Assembly (NCBI GenBank): GCA_965231215.1
Contig: OZ246423.1
Span: 1,120,001 to 1,184,000 of the forward strand
Reading direction: 5' to 3'
Length of the DNA: 64,000 bases
From: Candidatus Altimarinota bacterium
GTDB lineage: Bacteria > Patescibacteriota > Gracilibacteria > UBA4473
How positions within the stretch are numbered: position 1 is the first letter of the stretch; the number at the start of each line of letters is the position of its first letter. This document shows, piece after piece, positions 56,159 to 63,047 of this stretch. The position numbers and the translations under genes are program-made. The notes under the pieces were generated by a model that was not told the origin of the DNA, did not search any database, and saw only the letters and a program-made list of their open reading frames with translations.

Positions 56159-56546
56159 TTGAGGTTGAAAAGTTGTGCTGATCTTTTCTGGCACCATTTG
56201 GGGTTTTATAGATGAGGGAATGTAGAGATTTTTGAAGGGCTTTACTCTGTCCCATTTCAGGATGAAATTATATGAAATATAATACATATTTTTAATGCCT
56301 TTAATTTCTGTAAAAGCTTATTTTTAGAGTCTTGTATTGAGTAATTTTTTTATTCATTATTAAATTTAAGTATAATTTTTTTGTTCTTTTCTTTTGACAT
56401 TAATTTTTAATTAAAGTATACCGGTTTTGACCCCCCGCAAAAACAGTCTGGAAATCTTCAGAAAAATGGTTGAAACTTGCCATTTATTATGATACAATTT
56501 CCAGATTTTGTTTTATAAAAATCAAAACAAACCTAAAAAAATTAAT

Positions 56547-59500
56547 ATGAAACAATGGTTGAAACGGCAGTCGACGAGAAAGGGATTAAGTCTCTTAACA
56601 CTTGTAACGCTTAGTTATTCGATCTTTGCTCCTACCGCAGAGGCGCGCCTTATCTTTTCGACAGAAGATGATGGAACGGAATCTGACACTTATACTCTAG
56701 ACGTAGAAGGTGGGAATGCCGATGGAGCGAATGTGGATTTAGGAATTACCTTTGGGGGAGCGCTTAGCACTCCAGGGAGTCTTATCTATAATGATTCAAC
56801 CGGAGAATTTACTTTCAATAAAGCTGTGGATTTCGGAGGCAATGAAATTCAAGACTTTAGAGTAGAAAAACTCCCAACTGCTTCAGCTCCAACTTGTGCT
56901 GCCGCAGGTGATGCTGGACGAATGTATTATGATACAGACACTAATGAAATGATGGTTTGTACGGGAACGGTCTGGAATTCAGTAGAAGATCTTGATGGAG
57001 CGCTTACCGATGGGAACATCTTTGTAGGAAACGCCTCTAATCAAGCGACTGGAGTGACAATGAGTGGAGACGTAACGATTTCAAATACGGGCGTAACCAC
57101 GATTGGAGCGAATGCTATTGGATCAGCAGAAGTATCAAACAACACGCTTACCGCCGATGACCTAGCGACCGACTCAGTAGGAGCTGATGAGATTGCGGCT
57201 AACGCGGTAGGTTCAGCAGAGATTGCTACAAACGCCGTAGGAGACGATGAGATTGATTACACAAATGTAACGCTCTCTGACTTCACCAATGATCTATCAC
57301 TTACCTCTGCCAATATTTTTGTAGGGGATGGGTCAAACCAAGCGGCCGGAGTAGCTCTAAGTGGAGACGCGACCATCTCAAACACGGGAGTACTGACAAT
57401 CGGAGCGAATGCTATTGGATCAGCAGAAGTATCAAACAACACACTTACGGCTGATGACCTAGCTACTGATTCGGTAAACGCCGATGAGATTGCGGCTGGA
57501 GCGGTAGGAACATCAGAATTGAACGCTACAGGAGCGGGGAATGACAAAAGACTTACGACCAATGGAACTGGAGACATGGTATGGATAGATGATAATGCCC
57601 TTGATAATACCCTCACCTCCGCGAACATCTTCGTAGGTAACGGATCAAACCAAGCGGCCGGAGTAGCTCTAAGTGGAGACGCTACCATTGATAACACTGG
57701 TGCTCTAACTATTGCAGATAACGCAGTAGACGGAACCGATATTAGTGTAGCGGGTGAAGGCGCTGGTTCTGTAATGTACCATGATGGAACAGATTGGGTA
57801 AATCTAGGAGTAGGAACGGCCGGACAAGTATTATCGGTAAACGCTGGGGCTACAGCTCCTGAGTGGATTACAACCTCTAGCTCTTTAGAGGGGCTAACAG
57901 ATACAAATATTACAGGCGCTGCTGATGGAAACATCCTCGTATATGACAACACTAACTCTGAATGGGATAATGTAGCCGCTTCAGGAGACGCTACGATCTC
58001 AAATACAGGCGTCATTGATTTAGCCAATGGAGCTGTAGAAGCTTCAGAAATTGCAGACGGAGCGGTATCAGGAGGAACGGGAGGGGTCATTACCGACGAA
58101 TCTATTACCGCCGATGACCTAGCGACCGACTCAGTAGGTGCTGATGAGATTGCGGCTAACGCGGTAGGTTCAGCAGAGATTGCTACAAACGCCGTAGGAG
58201 ACGATGAGATTGATTACACAAATGTAACGCTCTCTGACTTCACCAATGATCTATCACTTACTTCTGCGAACATCTTCGTAGGTAACGGATCAAACCAAGC
58301 GGCCGGAGTAGCTCTAAGTGGAGACGCTACCATTGACAACACTGGTGCTCTAACTATTGCAGATAACGCAGTAGACGGAACCGATATTAGTGTAGCGGGT
58401 GAAGGCGCTGGTTCTGTAATGTACCATGATGGAACAGATTGGGTAAACCTAGGTATTGGAACCGCTGGCCAAAGACTACAAGTAAACGCTGGGGCTACAG
58501 CTCCGGAGTGGGTAACAGATAATGCACTTTCTGATACACTAACAGACGGAGATATCTTCGTCGGGAATGGATCAAACGTAGCGACTGGAGTGACAATGAG
58601 TGGAGACGTAACGATTTCAAATACGGGCGTAACCACGATTGGAGCGAATGCTATTGGATCAGCAGAAGTATCAAACAACACGCTTACCGCTGATGACCTA
58701 GCGACCGACTCAGTAGGAGCTGATGAGATTGCGGCTAACGCGGTAGGTTCAGCAGAGATTGCTACAAACGCCGTAGGGGACGATGAGATTGATTACACAA
58801 ATGTAACGCTCTCTGACTTCACCAATGATCTATCACTTACCTCTGCCAATATTTTTGTAGGGGATGGATCAAACCAAGCGGCCGGAGTAGCTCTAAGTGG
58901 AGACGCGACCATCTCAAACACGGGAGTACTGACAATCGGAGCGAATGCTATTGGATCAGCAGAAGTATCAAACAACACACTTACGGCTGATGACCTAGCG
59001 ACCGACTCAGTAGGAGCTGATGAGATTGCGGCTGGAGCGGTAGGAACATCAGAATTGAACGCTACAGGAGCGGGAAATGACAAAAGACTTACGACCAATG
59101 GAACTGGAGACATGGTATGGGTAGATGATAATGCCCTTGATAATACCCTCACCTCCGCCAACATCTTTGTAGGGAATGCATCAAATGTAGCTGCCGGAGT
59201 AGCGATGAGTGGAGACGCTACGATCAATAATACTGGAGCCTTGGATCTTGCTGATGATGCGGTAGAAGCCTCAGAACTTAACGCTGACACCGCTGGTCTA
59301 GGTATTACTCAAGCTGTTTCAGGAGCTCTAGATGTGAATGTAGACGATTCTACTATTGAAGTAGAGACTGACATTGTTCAGGTTAAAGATGACGGGATTA
59401 CCGCTGCTAAATTAAACGCTGATACAGCTGGAGACGGTCTGGTTCAAAATGGTGGAACAGGAGCTCTAGATGTAAATGTGGATGATACCACTATTGAAAT

Positions 59501-60014
59501 TAATGCAGATGTACTTCAAATTAAAGACCGAAACGTAACGCTGAATATGCCAGTAGAGTATCCTAACTTTACACTTGTAGCCGATGGATCAGCTAACCGA
59601 GGAACCTTTGAATCTGATCACGATGCTACAGCGGTGAGAAACTACTACCAATGGTCTACGCGAAGAGCCACTCAACAAGACTACGATCTAGTGGTTCAAT
59701 GGCCAATCCCAGATGATTTCCAAGAATTCCAAGCGACAAACCCAATTCAGTTCTTGTACCAAACAACTGATGCGACAGCTGGGGATAATGAAATTGATGT
59801 GATTAGTCTAAGTGATACGGCTGGAGCGGCCGTCACCCTGACAGGTTCTAATGTTGATCTTGTAAACACAGCTTGGACTACACACGATCTTAATTACTCT
59901 GGAACTCCAACCTTCACGGCTGGAGAGTACATTACCTTAACGCTACGTCTACACGCAGACAATGGAAATGTTTCACGGCTAGGAGAAATGATCTTCAATT
60001 ACGTAGCTAAATAG
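56547..60014 (+). CDS. Long repetitive secreted fibre protein (member 5)
   Basis: Signal ..AEA, IFSTEDDG module, repeats LTSANIFVGNGSNQAAGVALSGDATI and 10-aa (I/L)AxxAVGxxE; YPN...QDYD head shared with member 1. Confidence 0.8.
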   Translation: MKQWLKRQSTRKGLSLLTLVTLSYSIFAPTAEARLIFSTEDDGTESDTYTLDVEGGNADGANVDLGITFGGALSTPGSLIYNDSTGEFTFNKAVDFGGNEIQDFRVEKLPTASAPTCAAAGDAGRMYYDTDTNEMMVCTGTVWNSVEDLDGALTDGNIFVGNASNQATGVTMSGDVTISNTGVTTIGANAIGSAEVSNNTLTADDLATDSVGADEIAANAVGSAEIATNAVGDDEIDYTNVTLSDFTNDLSLTSANIFVGDGSNQAAGVALSGDATISNTGVLTIGANAIGSAEVSNNTLTADDLATDSVNADEIAAGAVGTSELNATGAGNDKRLTTNGTGDMVWIDDNALDNTLTSANIFVGNGSNQAAGVALSGDATIDNTGALTIADNAVDGTDISVAGEGAGSVMYHDGTDWVNLGVGTAGQVLSVNAGATAPEWITTSSSLEGLTDTNITGAADGNILVYDNTNSEWDNVAASGDATISNTGVIDLANGAVEASEIADGAVSGGTGGVITDESITADDLATDSVGADEIAANAVGSAEIATNAVGDDEIDYTNVTLSDFTNDLSLTSANIFVGNGSNQAAGVALSGDATIDNTGALTIADNAVDGTDISVAGEGAGSVMYHDGTDWVNLGIGTAGQRLQVNAGATAPEWVTDNALSDTLTDGDIFVGNGSNVATGVTMSGDVTISNTGVTTIGANAIGSAEVSNNTLTADDLATDSVGADEIAANAVGSAEIATNAVGDDEIDYTNVTLSDFTNDLSLTSANIFVGDGSNQAAGVALSGDATISNTGVLTIGANAIGSAEVSNNTLTADDLATDSVGADEIAAGAVGTSELNATGAGNDKRLTTNGTGDMVWVDDNALDNTLTSANIFVGNASNVAAGVAMSGDATINNTGALDLADDAVEASELNADTAGLGITQAVSGALDVNVDDSTIEVETDIVQVKDDGITAAKLNADTAGDGLVQNGGTGALDVNVDDTTIEINADVLQIKDRNVTLNMPVEYPNFTLVADGSANRGTFESDHDATAVRNYYQWSTRRATQQDYDLVVQWPIPDDFQEFQATNPIQFLYQTTDATAGDNEIDVISLSDTAGAAVTLTGSNVDLVNTAWTTHDLNYSGTPTFTAGEYITLTLRLHADNGNVSRLGEMIFNYVAK
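57045..59166. repeat. Near-identical intragenic direct repeats
   Basis: 57045-57630 recurs at 58581-59166 (offset 1536); 57621-57800 at 58266-58445 (offset 645); 57149-57304 at 58106-58261 (offset 957). Confidence 0.9.
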
Positions 60015-60240: not shown

Positions 60241-61230
60241 TTATTGTCCAGATTGCTCACGGGCTTTGGTGGCTATCTGGCTCGCAATGGTTTTAATTTT
60301 ATCTGTAAGGGTTTGGTTTTTATCATTTAAATTAAAGCTCTCATCGGCTAAATTCCAGGCCTGTTTGCTCGTAGCGATAACTTCTTCAATTCGTCCTTCA
60401 CTACCAGCGATATAAGCGCCAGTGATATTTTTAAGAGCTTTTACAACTTTATCGGCAGAAAGGACAATACTATTCTGGGGAAGAAGCTCTAAAGCATAGG
60501 TAGAAAACTTCTCAGCAATAGAAACCAGCACTGCAGCGGTTCCAATCTCTTGTTTTTCAATAAATTCAATACTTTTGATTAGGTGAATTTCGGCCAAATT
60601 AAGCAAGGTTTGAGGGTTAAGCCCTTTGCCTTGTCTCAGCATAGAAAAAATAAGGTCAGCAGCCTCGCCTCGGGTCAGCTCTTTGCCTGGATGTATATTG
60701 TTATCTTGATCTGGGGTGACGATCTTGTATTTAACCGCAAACTTTAGGTAAGGGGCAAACCAAATATCATCTGGTACATCACTGATAGGTACCTCTCCTA
60801 ATTCGTATTGAGTAGGATCAATTTCAAAGCTGAGCATAAGCATTTTTATAAACTCCGCTTTATTAACGGTTCTGCCTGGAGCGAAATTTCCAGTCGTAGA
60901 GTCACCAGAAACAATTCCTAGAGTGGCTGCATGATTTATGAAAGGCGCGAACCAAATGTCCTTTGGGACATCAGCAAATTTTGTTTCAGTAGCTTCCTCG
61001 GCTTCAATTTCCGCCGCAATAAGAATTATTTTAAGTGATTCAGCTCTGTTAATCAGCTTGTCTCGTCCAAAAGAACCATCGTCATAGCCTTTGAAGATAC
61101 TATGTTGTTCAAGATAGGTTGTAGCTGGATAAAATTCATCCTGAATATTAATATCAGTGAAGGCAAAAACACTGGTTGGAGAAACTAAAAAAGTGAAGAT
61201 TATGAGTTGTTTGAAGTAAGGCTTATTCAT
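60241..61230 (-). CDS. S-layer homology (SLH) domain protein
   Basis: Signal peptide; three SLH repeats (GYDDGSFG...INRAE, FADVP..WFAP, LTRGEAA); helical C-terminus. Confidence 0.9.
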   Translation of the reverse strand: MNKPYFKQLIIFTFLVSPTSVFAFTDINIQDEFYPATTYLEQHSIFKGYDDGSFGRDKLINRAESLKIILIAAEIEAEEATETKFADVPKDIWFAPFINHAATLGIVSGDSTTGNFAPGRTVNKAEFIKMLMLSFEIDPTQYELGEVPISDVPDDIWFAPYLKFAVKYKIVTPDQDNNIHPGKELTRGEAADLIFSMLRQGKGLNPQTLLNLAEIHLIKSIEFIEKQEIGTAAVLVSIAEKFSTYALELLPQNSIVLSADKVVKALKNITGAYIAGSEGRIEEVIATSKQAWNLADESFNLNDKNQTLTDKIKTIASQIATKAREQSGQ

Positions 61231-61361
61231 CTATTAACCATTTTTTAAATTTGGCTCACAAACGCAAGTTCTTTTGAACACAAAAATTGTTTGCGTTCCA
61301 AAAATTTGTACTACAAAAAAGTCTTTAATACAGTCTTAATCTGTGTTTTAGGCTTGTTTTT

Positions 61362-61390
61362 ATAATAAAAACAATATTGCCGTTTTGCAA
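61362..61390 (-). promoter_or_regulatory. Putative sigma70 promoter of the SLH gene
   Basis: Minus strand TTGCAA-17-TATTAT. Confidence 0.5.
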
Positions 61391-61407
61391 GTTGAATTTG
61401 TAAAGTC

Positions 61408-61435
61408 AAAAAACTCCATAAGTGTTTTATGAAGT
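61408..61435 (-). terminator. Intrinsic terminator closing the candidate ncRNA
   Basis: Minus strand ACTTCATAA-AACAC-TTATGGAGT followed by TTTTT. Confidence 0.65.
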
Positions 61436-61994
61436 CATAAAGCGAAGCAGGAGCGGATGGCTATCTGGTTCTCAGTTTATTTTGAGTGATAAGCTACCGC
61501 CCCCTACTTCTGTAGGTAACTAGCCTACAATAACTCTCGCCTTGCTTTGGTGCCAATAACCGATGCACCTCCGGGGTTCATAATGCTTTCTCCTTATTTT
61601 TGACTAAAAGTCAGAAATAGAGTAGAATGCGAACCAAGAAAATTTGAACCACACAAAACGTTAGTGGTTGGCATAAAAGGCATTTCATTCTGGAATGTCT
61701 TTAGTCTAAGACTAGCGTTTTATTCTCAACCGTTTTGTGAGGGGATCTTGTTCGTAGTTTCAGGCGAACAAAACCTCGTCGCAGAGCGGAGAGAGGGAAG
61801 AAAGCGTTGAAAGATTCTCGAGTAGTCCGATAAAAAATATATGTTTTGGACTTGAGAAGCTTTGTGCCACTTCCTTTCCTCTCTCCGGGGGATTAATCGT
61901 TTCTGTAAAAGATCTACTTCCTGTCTCGTTTTGGGCCGTTCCTTTCTGGTGTGAATCACTGCTTTTTTGTTTTGATTTGTGAAGCGAAGTGTTC
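61408..61994 (-). ncRNA. Candidate large structured non-coding RNA of unknown class (~585 nt)
   Basis: At least 8 adjacent hairpins in a gene-free, GC-enriched interval, bounded by a promoter and a terminator; strand taken from those signals. Confidence 0.6.
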
Positions 61995-61999
61995 AGAGC

Positions 62000-62028
62000 A
62001 TTTTATCCAGGAAGGGGGTTGTTGTCAA
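62000..62028 (-). promoter_or_regulatory. Near-consensus sigma70 promoter of the candidate ncRNA
   Basis: Minus strand TTGACA (62028-62023), 17-bp spacer, TAAAAT (62005-62000). Confidence 0.7.
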
Positions 62029-62309
62029 AACTTTTTATCTAGGAAACCCGAAAATGCCTTGTTTAAGCCGAAAACAATAAAAGACATTCTATCTTAAATA
62101 TTTTAAATATATAATTAAAAGCATGCTGGAACGTCGAATTTCAGCGTTAATTAAAAGCATTTTTCGAACGCGTACTAGGTTTGTACGCTTATCTCCACAA
62201 TTTTTTAATTGCCTTGAACTTCTTGTCCCAACTCACTTTTATTCTAGGAGGTCTTGTTATTTATTGTTAGGTTCTTAGAATTTTGCTAATTTTTGATTCA
62301 TAAAAATAT

Positions 62310-63047
62310 ATGGCTGGGCATAGTAAGTGGAAGCAAATTAAGCATAAGAAGGCGGCAAATGATGCGGCTCGAGGGAAAATTTTGACTAAACATGCCAAGA
62401 TTTTAGCAGTTGTAGGACGTAATGATCCTAATCCAGATACCAATCGGTCACTGAGAACCGCTATTACCAATGCTAAAGCTGATGGTGTCCCTAAAGACAA
62501 TATAGAAAGAACGCTTAAAAAACTTAGTGGAGAGGGGCCTGATGCGGTAGTCTATACAGAAAATGTATATGAAGGGTTTGGGCCTGATGGAGTGCCCTTT
62601 ATGGTGATGAGTCTTACCGATAACACCAATAGAGCTTATACCGATATCCGCAACGCCTTTAATAAAAATGGGGGAAATTTAGGATCTACTGGCTCAGTGG
62701 CTTTTATGTTTGATCATGTGGGAGTGATTTCATTCGATCTTTTAGGAAAGAACGAAGATGAGGTTTTTGAAATGGTAGCTTCAGCCGGAGGGGAGGACTT
62801 TGTGATAGAAGATAATATTGTGGAGGTTACGACTAGTTTTGAAGATTTGGGCAAGGTGCGTCAGGCACTAGAAGATCAGAAAATTGAGATTAGAAAATCA
62901 GAACCTATATATAAAGCTAAAGATCCGGTAAAGATTTCGGATACTACCGTACTGAAAAAAATAGAGGATTTTGTTGAGGCTGTAGAAGCGGTGGATGATA
63001 CCGATGAAGTTTTTGGTGGGTTTATTGTAGGGGATAATTTATTATAG
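62310..63047 (+). CDS. yebC: YebC/PmpR family protein
   Basis: MAGHSKWKQIKHKK, YEGFGP.G, TDNTNR, GSVAFMF. Confidence 0.96.
   Translation: MAGHSKWKQIKHKKAANDAARGKILTKHAKILAVVGRNDPNPDTNRSLRTAITNAKADGVPKDNIERTLKKLSGEGPDAVVYTENVYEGFGPDGVPFMVMSLTDNTNRAYTDIRNAFNKNGGNLGSTGSVAFMFDHVGVISFDLLGKNEDEVFEMVASAGGEDFVIEDNIVEVTTSFEDLGKVRQALEDQKIEIRKSEPIYKAKDPVKISDTTVLKKIEDFVEAVEAVDDTDEVFGGFIVGDNLL

Follow-up and report, generated by a model that had tools for sequence, protein, structure and literature searches.

A family-restricted, structured non-coding RNA locus in Gracilibacteria-class Patescibacteria that may be transcribed from both strands

What is encoded in a gap between two protein genes that holds no convincing reading frame and is filled with potential RNA helices? 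Such a gap is present in a 64,000-nt stretch (hereafter, the window) of contig OZ246423.1 from a Candidatus Altimarinota bacterium, between a gene for an SLH-domain protein (60241-61230, minus strand; Pfam SLH) and yebC (62310-63047, plus strand). An initial annotation, made from the letters of the window alone, had proposed that positions 61408-62028 represent a stand-alone large non-coding RNA (ncRNA), possibly a new class of the Candidate Phyla Radiation (CPR). It had favoured one gene of ~585 nt on the minus strand, with the caveat that the strand was not settled, and had suggested a comparison with Rfam, a folding test against shuffled sequences and a search for covarying homologues in Patescibacteria. 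Our analysis confirms that 61408-62028 is a structured non-coding locus. The proposal of a stand-alone and possibly new RNA is supported by the lack of an Rfam match, by conservation and by varied neighbouring genes, and the caveat was well placed: the strand evidence depends on the region, and in sum it favours a use of both strands, as far as can be predicted. The explanation that we prefer, with a probability of about 0.5, is a new, family-restricted large ncRNA locus with two predicted transcripts that are structured, convergent and overlapping.

The longest frame within the gap (61231-62309) is 77 amino acids under genetic code 11, and the longest stop-to-stop frame under code 25 is 104 amino acids. 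None of the frames is conserved across the compared homologues, as judged by eye, and the homologues differ by many insertions and deletions with lengths that are not multiples of three. These features rule out a protein-coding gene under code 11 or code 25 and confirm the earlier view that no credible open reading frame is present at 61408-62028. The folding energy of the region 61400-62030 is -215.6 kcal/mol (z -8.89) for the plus strand and -172.6 kcal/mol (z -4.45) for the minus strand. None of 20 shuffled sequences matched the real energy on either strand; an excess of folding is present on both. The G+C content is 0.41-0.44 across 61400-62000 versus 0.28-0.33 in the flanks.

The genome (G000; genomes, contigs and loci are cited below by our G, C and L numbers where needed) consists of one contig of 1.33 Mb with 99.3% completeness and contains the element once. 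A covariance model built on 61705-61796 (R1) matched 30 of 43 genomes of the same family, which represent 18 of its 25 genera. In a sample of the class, R1 matched 11 of 151 genomes, including 10 of the 15 family genomes besides G000 and none of the 135 genomes of other families. Matches by blastn were found in 11 of 61 related genomes, G000 included (4/4 congeners, 10/36 in the family and 0/24 in other families). A metagenome scan yielded 120 pattern loci, and R1 confirmed five among the 80 searched, of which two were strong (100.1 and 90.6 bits) and three weak; these added nothing new. The records with pattern matches carry titles of Candidatus Gracilibacteria, Peribacteria or Altimarinota. 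Within the genomes searched, the locus is confined to one family of Gracilibacteria-class Patescibacteria. The genes next to it vary by genus (SLH, YebC, Dxs, LeuRS, P-type ATPase, RuvB, Lgt, a methyltransferase and others); therefore, the element is a stand-alone unit.

The locus matches no RNA family in Rfam 15. A cmscan search of 60500-63000 on both strands gave no match at E ≤ 1, and the sole matches at gathering score in the whole window are the transfer-messenger RNA (tmRNA) and one tRNA. Among 17 homologous loci, no consistent match was obtained; two unrelated, sub-threshold matches were seen (ncr1175, E 0.0043; MIR529, E 0.19). The novelty proposed for the locus stands in this respect, and a literature search on Patescibacteria, Gracilibacteria and Peribacteria turned up no account of an RNA of this kind. 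The locus is >400 nt long and non-coding, with covarying helices, conservation in multiple genera and transcription signals of its own, and is placed here in the category of large ornate ncRNAs, which is a working category and not a homology family.

Transcription signals are found on both strands. On the minus strand, a sigma-70-type promoter (P_minus, 62000-62028) consists of TTGACA (62028-62023), a 17-nt spacer and TAAAAT (62005-62000), with an A-rich stretch upstream. It scores 11 of 12, and its predicted start is near 61993. Of 27 homologues, 25 have a counterpart of at least 9/12 at the corresponding end, in most cases with the two hexamers separated by 17 nt of unrelated sequence; in the 1.33 Mb of G000, perfect TTGACA-N16-18-TAnnnT sites number only 52. 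At the other end, a terminator-like hairpin is present at 61408-61435 on the same strand, with a 9-bp stem (61435-61427/61421-61413, one G-U pair) followed by a U run (61412-61408). This terminator was read from the sequence, since the automatic scan gave no score owing to too few G-C pairs, and a hairpin with a U run was seen by eye on the minus strand at the same end of every homologue inspected. Both signals had been named in the initial annotation and hold up in the homologues. Together they define a predicted minus-strand transcript of ~585 nt (RNA-M, 61408-61993). As a separate observation, many of the 52 perfect promoter sites have a G+C-rich discriminator downstream (CGCGCGGCT or CGGCCGGCT type), which suggests a stringent-type promoter class.

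On the plus strand, a second sigma-70-type promoter (P_plus, 61600-61628) consists of TTGACT (61600-05), 17 nt and TAGAAT (61623-28). It scores 10 of 12, and of the 27 homologues, 24 have a site of at least 9/12 in the same position; a larger control region upstream on the plus strand reaches 9/12 in 4 of 27 homologues and never 10. The distance between its -35 and -10 elements is held at 16-18 nt (16-17 in most), and, depending on the genus, the -35 element lies in the stem or in the loop of the local hairpin H3 (see below). A spacing that is kept despite this shifting place is the behaviour expected of a promoter and not of a pairing partner. Transcription from P_plus is predicted to start near 61636, ~15 nt ahead of the helix that comes first in the folded core described next (P-LR). 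Near P_plus, the sign of the GC skew is inverted: the A1/H1 block has -0.10, H2H3 +0.24 and C +0.16. P_plus and P_minus face each other at a distance of ~370 bp, and since both are conserved, the locus probably makes two overlapping antisense transcripts.

The region immediately downstream of P_plus is the best-conserved folded core of the locus (domain C, 61650-61795) and is assigned to the plus strand. It comprises a long-range helix (P-LR, 61652-60/61731-39, CACAAAACG/CGTTTTGTG), P1' (61659-65/61711-17), the main hairpin P2 (61676-87/61691-702, GGCATTTCA/TGGAATGTC), P5/P6 (61742-77) and a near-invariant, purine-rich strand, AACCTCGTCGCAGAGCGGAGAGA (61772-94). In 16 distant sequences, 90.8% of the cells of P-LR and P2 are paired, as compared with 34-52% when the partner is slid; both-side changes are found in 6 of the 15 pairs, and none of 500 shuffles reached the covariation score. 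The complementarity of 61652-60 and 61731-39 pointed out in the initial annotation is accordingly that of a helix, P-LR, which covaries when counted together with P2.

The strand of domain C is indicated most directly by P2. Its pairs 35:72 and 38:69 are G-U in 15 of 16 sequences, and the pair between them switches between G-C and A-U; with these pairs, P2 as modelled can form only on the plus strand. When the arms of P2 were compared in 21 sequences without favouring a strand, 52 isolated transitions of the plus type, none of the minus type and five transversion mismatches were counted, although ~21 of the 52 follow from the hairpin seeding. By eye, the P1'-P2 hairpin of G022 (locus L091) contains 6 G-U among 21 pairs on the plus strand. 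Internal G-U pairs number 68 on plus versus 7 on minus in C1, and 90 versus 32 in C2. The mean folding energy of domain C over nine homologues is -63.8 kcal/mol (z -6.4) on the plus strand and -38.6 kcal/mol (z -2.2) on the minus strand, and the whole locus folds better on plus in all 10 homologues tested, by 27-58 kcal/mol. In these and the following counts, the near-duplicates G028b (of G028a) and G003 (of G002) were left out of the G-U, transition, H3 and GC-skew counts, and loci without a recognisable V end or motif were left out of those for C2, V, H3 and GC skew. L085 and L095 were left out because the core motif was not found (the L095 match lies inside a 741-aa frame and is probably false), and the P2 arm comparison also left out L083, L084 and L088.

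These data bear on the simplest alternative, namely that the locus makes a single minus-strand ncRNA of ~585 nt, with P_plus being incidental or giving a minor antisense RNA, and with central hairpins that tolerate A-C mismatches or are not needed. P_minus and the terminator are conserved, and the duplication in G028 spans the unit from terminator to promoter: its two copies are 95% alike, and their shared sequence extends ~25 nt beyond the terminator at one end and ~15 nt beyond the -35 element at the other. The helices H1, H2, PB and PA (see below) fit only such a transcript, the hairpin V and H1 lean to the minus strand, and P-LR contains A-C on plus in three sequences. However, P2 would then have to accommodate at least two conserved A-C mismatches throughout the genera, the L091 hairpin has its six G-U pairs on plus, domain C would be left with the weaker of its two z-scores, and P_plus is conserved as well as P_minus is. 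We consider this explanation rather unlikely. As for the initial annotation, the promoter and terminator of its ~585-nt minus-strand gene stand, while its restriction to one strand does not agree with the plus-strand folding of domain C and the second promoter.

The opposite alternative is a plus-strand RNA (domain C and V) as the sole working product, with P_minus giving a plain regulatory antisense RNA, and with the helices upstream of P_plus being terminators of neighbouring genes or parts of a longer plus read-through. The outer helices bear on this. PA (61444-61510, strand open) is a three-tiered hairpin (61444-56/61497-510) with a conserved GAGTGA motif and, by eye, compensatory changes between genera (GAGCGG/CCGC.. 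versus GGATGG/CCATCC versus GAGCAAC/GTTGCTC); it has no strand preference (summed energies -818 on plus versus -854 on minus; internal G-U 33 versus 40). PB (61511-61529, strand open) is a hairpin with a conserved 7-nt loop, TAACTAG, and both-side changes in 3 of 5 pairs, as well as in its four pairs when read on the minus strand. The segment 61531-61570, the most conserved block outside domain C, consists of the invariant block AACTCTCGCCTTGCT (61531-49) and H1 (GGTGC/GCACC, 61550-70, loop ..ACCGA.) and is assigned to the minus strand. H1 covaries, and its fifth pair is A-C on plus and G-U on minus in G028a, G016, L077 and L082. H2 (GGTTC 61575-79/GAACC 61631-35; with H3, 61575-61635, strand open) has both-side changes in 4 of 5 pairs and encloses H3 (61595-61619, TATTTTTGACT/AGTCAGAAATA), which is formed in all homologues from unrelated sequences. 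Combined, PB, H1 and H2 show both-side changes in 11 of 19 predicted pairs (11 sequences).

Because H1 lies upstream of P_plus, it can be present only in a minus transcript or in a plus read-through. Upstream of PA or H1, the 27 homologues share no conserved promoter on the plus strand, the best sites scoring 6-9/12 at varying places, and a plus-strand promoter upstream of PA was rejected on this ground. PB, H1 and H2 covary yet are located upstream of P_plus, which speaks for a minus transcript; the invariant block 61531-49 would likewise lie outside a plus-only RNA, and the gene upstream of the locus in G000 is on the opposite (minus) strand. What the plus-only explanation has in its favour is the better plus-strand energy in 10/10 homologues, a plus-type G-U excess that reaches into H2/H3, a PA stem that in distant genera itself lies between an A run and a T run, as in a two-way terminator, and the many loci at which both neighbours are on the plus strand. 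On balance, we regard it as unlikely.

All of the helices named in the initial annotation were found where it had placed them. Conservation upheld most of them: PB, H1, H2, P-LR and P2 show compensatory changes among the homologues, and PA does so by eye. Two did not fare as well. The long hairpin, with TTGTTCG/CGAACAA, lies at 61730-61789; the helix at its base (P4, 61730-40/61779-89) is favoured by RNAalifold, but 499 of 500 shuffles reach its covariation score, which gives it no support; P4 was therefore rejected as an antiterminator-like helix and is kept only as a possible alternative pairing. The TTAGTC/GACTAG helix is not conserved outside G000 and G018.

Several observations weigh against the two-transcript explanation. 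The hairpin V (61788-61886, strand open) has a conserved base (GGAGAG/CTCTCC), a second tier (GAG.AAATG) and a variable tip, with a total length of 58-304 nt among homologues. It folds with a mean z of -7.45 on minus versus -5.69 on plus, and its isolated transitions in 21 sequences give G-U on minus in 24 cases and on plus in 10, with 24 transversions; with these figures and the relatedness of the sequences, its minus preference is weak. Upstream of the predicted start on the plus strand, H2ext/H3 contains 68 G-U pairs on plus versus 16 on minus (25 sequences), for which we have no explanation, and the P-LR of L086, L089 and L092 contains an A-C when read on plus, which is G-U on minus. A conserved plus-strand terminator was not found: V is followed by a T run in no more than 3 of 23 loci (L084, L091 and L092) and was rejected as the terminator of a plus RNA for this reason. 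P_plus and P_minus are consensus matches, which do not imply firing. Among sequencing runs, four were listed as containing the locus, none of them from RNA. In addition, the GC skew of the plus strand is positive overall in the window, and the bulk G-U counts and energies for plus may consequently be inflated; the invariant G-U pairs of P2 alone escape this objection. Finally, all of the counts come from related genomes and are hence not independent.

In L057 (G028 C1), L044 (G065) and L063 (G013 C38), the tip of V has grown to ~300 nt of A-rich sequence. Between V and P_minus, the stretch 61887-61999 (strand open) is T/G-rich on plus and A/C-rich on minus and contains conserved TGTAAAAGATC (61904-14) and GCGAAGTGTTCAGAGC (61984-99). 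It folds poorly (mean z ~0 on both strands) and is 34-164 nt long in the homologues with a usable estimate.

The position of the element next to other genes raises the question of whether it acts in cis, as a leader or attenuator of a downstream plus-strand gene such as yebC or ruvB, with P-LR, P4 and the base of V as the alternative pairings of a switch. The gene yebC follows the element on plus in G000, G004, G002 and G001 and is the second gene in G018, and ruvB follows it on plus in all three distant-type loci tested. Moreover, CGTTTTGTG and GCGGAGAG each have two possible partners, and the three loci mentioned above have a T run after V. Against this, P_minus is placed between the element and the gene that follows and is directed against that gene, the yebC start in G000 is 280 nt past P_minus, many loci have downstream either an unrelated gene or one on the opposite strand, and P4 has no covariation support. 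A leader is very unlikely on these grounds, and the recurrent position of yebC (in genus g1 and G018) and ruvB may be old synteny.

The least probable of the explanations considered is a feature of the DNA itself or of a mobile element, namely an integration site, a mobile-element remnant or a single-strand origin with a hairpin promoter. It draws on the two copies found in each of G028, G019 and G013, the tandem core in G015, the partial copy in G033 and the promoter hexamers embedded in a hairpin. Most genomes, however, have a single copy located between housekeeping genes, with no recombinase, transposase or replication gene adjoining, and the conserved G-U pairs indicate RNA, not duplex DNA. 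A blastn search against phage and plasmid collections gave no match, and R1 confirmed none of 21 viral pattern loci; a phage or plasmid origin was rejected on these two results.

In L056 (G015 C10, 4300-5250), the core is duplicated in tandem, from the invariant CTCTCGCC block to V, inside one promoter-terminator unit. The partial copy of G033 (L024/L060, C7, ~1380-1580) consists of PA, PB, H1 and the 5' arm of H2 only and diverges just short of the internal promoter hairpin. Rearrangement, att-like duplication and an assembly effect are all conceivable origins of this copy, the contig being 2.3 kb long.

If both promoters fire, as the two-transcript explanation supposes, the locus would work as follows. 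RNA-M would start at ~61993 on the minus strand and end at ~61410, at the terminator 61435-61408; along its ~585 nt, the V hairpin would come first, then the antisense copy of domain C, and after that H2/H3, H1, PB, PA and the terminator. The plus-strand transcript (RNA-P) would start at ~61636 and run straight into domain C, where the long-range helix would close a long, G-U-rich hairpin, followed by the near-invariant purine-rich strand and the V hairpin. The two would overlap by ~360 nt, and the domain near the 5' end of each would be one with a preference for the strand concerned (V in RNA-M, domain C in RNA-P). Domain C of RNA-P would be the working fold and would probably bind a protein or a ligand. 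Convergent transcription and pairing with RNA-M would set the level of RNA-P, for which promoter occlusion, polymerase collision and duplex cleavage are conceivable routes, and the 3' domain of RNA-M (H1, H2, PB and PA) may have a separate role.

Known RNA systems resemble the locus in part. OLE, ROOL and GOLLD are likewise of the ~600-nt class, with many covarying helices, a promoter of their own, a stand-alone position, a narrow taxonomic range and a function that is not evident from context. The locus shows no sequence or structure match to these families, which are represented in Rfam (nothing was found by cmscan at E ≤ 1). It also differs from them in its host, Patescibacteria, in having no phage link and no partner genes such as oapA, and in having a second conserved promoter on the opposite strand and folded domains that prefer different strands. 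RNA II and RNA I of ColE1 are made from face-to-face promoters, the long structured RNA being overlapped by an antisense RNA that starts inside it. The two convergent promoters and the predicted overlapping antisense are similar to this arrangement; however, the present locus is chromosomal and single-copy, has no replication origin or coding gene under its control, would have an overlap of ~360 nt with both partners seeming to have conserved folds of their own, and is not related in sequence. To 6S RNA the element is similar in its stand-alone promoter of the abundant type and in the promoter-like hexamers inside a hairpin, but it has no Rfam 6S match and differs in size and fold. A separate 6S RNA candidate lies outside the window, at 402334-402492 (minus) of G000 C1 (42.3 bits versus a cut-off of 46.4).

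Identity with RNase P RNA, signal recognition particle (SRP) RNA, tmRNA, 6S RNA, a T-box, group I or II introns, OLE, ROOL, GOLLD, raiA or HEARO was rejected, as none of these matched in Rfam 15. This result bears out the impression, recorded in the initial annotation, that hallmarks of RNase P, SRP, T-box, group II intron and tmRNA are lacking, and the tmRNA, which it considered already accounted for, is indeed placed elsewhere in the genome. A full-length RNase P RNA (RNaseP_bact_a, 168.6 bits) is present at 725861-726229 of G000 C1, which rules out the locus as the only RNase P RNA of the genome. The small and large SRP RNA models matched neither the G000 genome nor the 60500-63000 region, and the small model matched none of 61 genomes of the class. 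Domains of Ffh and FtsY were not found in G000, neither SRP_SPB nor the SRP54 GTPase domain, and nor was a DTAGR-type motif with P-loop; a passage of the Vampirococcus paper (PMC8080830) describes SRP subunits as absent in many CPR bacteria. A role as a replacement of SRP RNA was rejected because the loss of SRP spans the class, while the element is limited to one family.

Two features of the adjoining DNA were also recorded. An inverted repeat (AACGCAA, 23 nt, TTGCGTT) is located at 61258-61296, 30-65 nt upstream of where the SLH gene starts, and the block 61261-61292 is 93% identical in two congeners; the repeat may be an operator or promoter element of that gene. The protein encoded at 56508-60014 (plus strand, 1168 aa), which adjoins the SLH protein, has weak, sub-threshold Pfam matches only (Cwp8_D2 and Mtd_N) and may be a cell-surface protein.

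Few bacterial RNAs are large and elaborately folded, and every one discovered to date has started a new line of research. According to our literature search, none has been described from this part of the CPR, and it is unusual for a stand-alone ncRNA gene to combine convergent conserved promoters with domains of opposite strand preference. In a tentative interpretation that goes further than the two-transcript explanation, and against which we would put the odds somewhat, the locus would be a chromosomal RNA-only module in which both strands encode folded RNA domains, a plus-strand ornate RNA and a longer minus-strand RNA with a ~360-nt overlap controlling each other by collision and pairing. 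It would thus be a self-contained RNA switch that includes no protein gene, in symbiotic bacteria that are reduced and lack SRP. Given its presence in 18 of 25 genera, its strong housekeeping-type promoters and the ~1-Mb genomes with little spare DNA in which it is kept, the locus likely matters to the cell.

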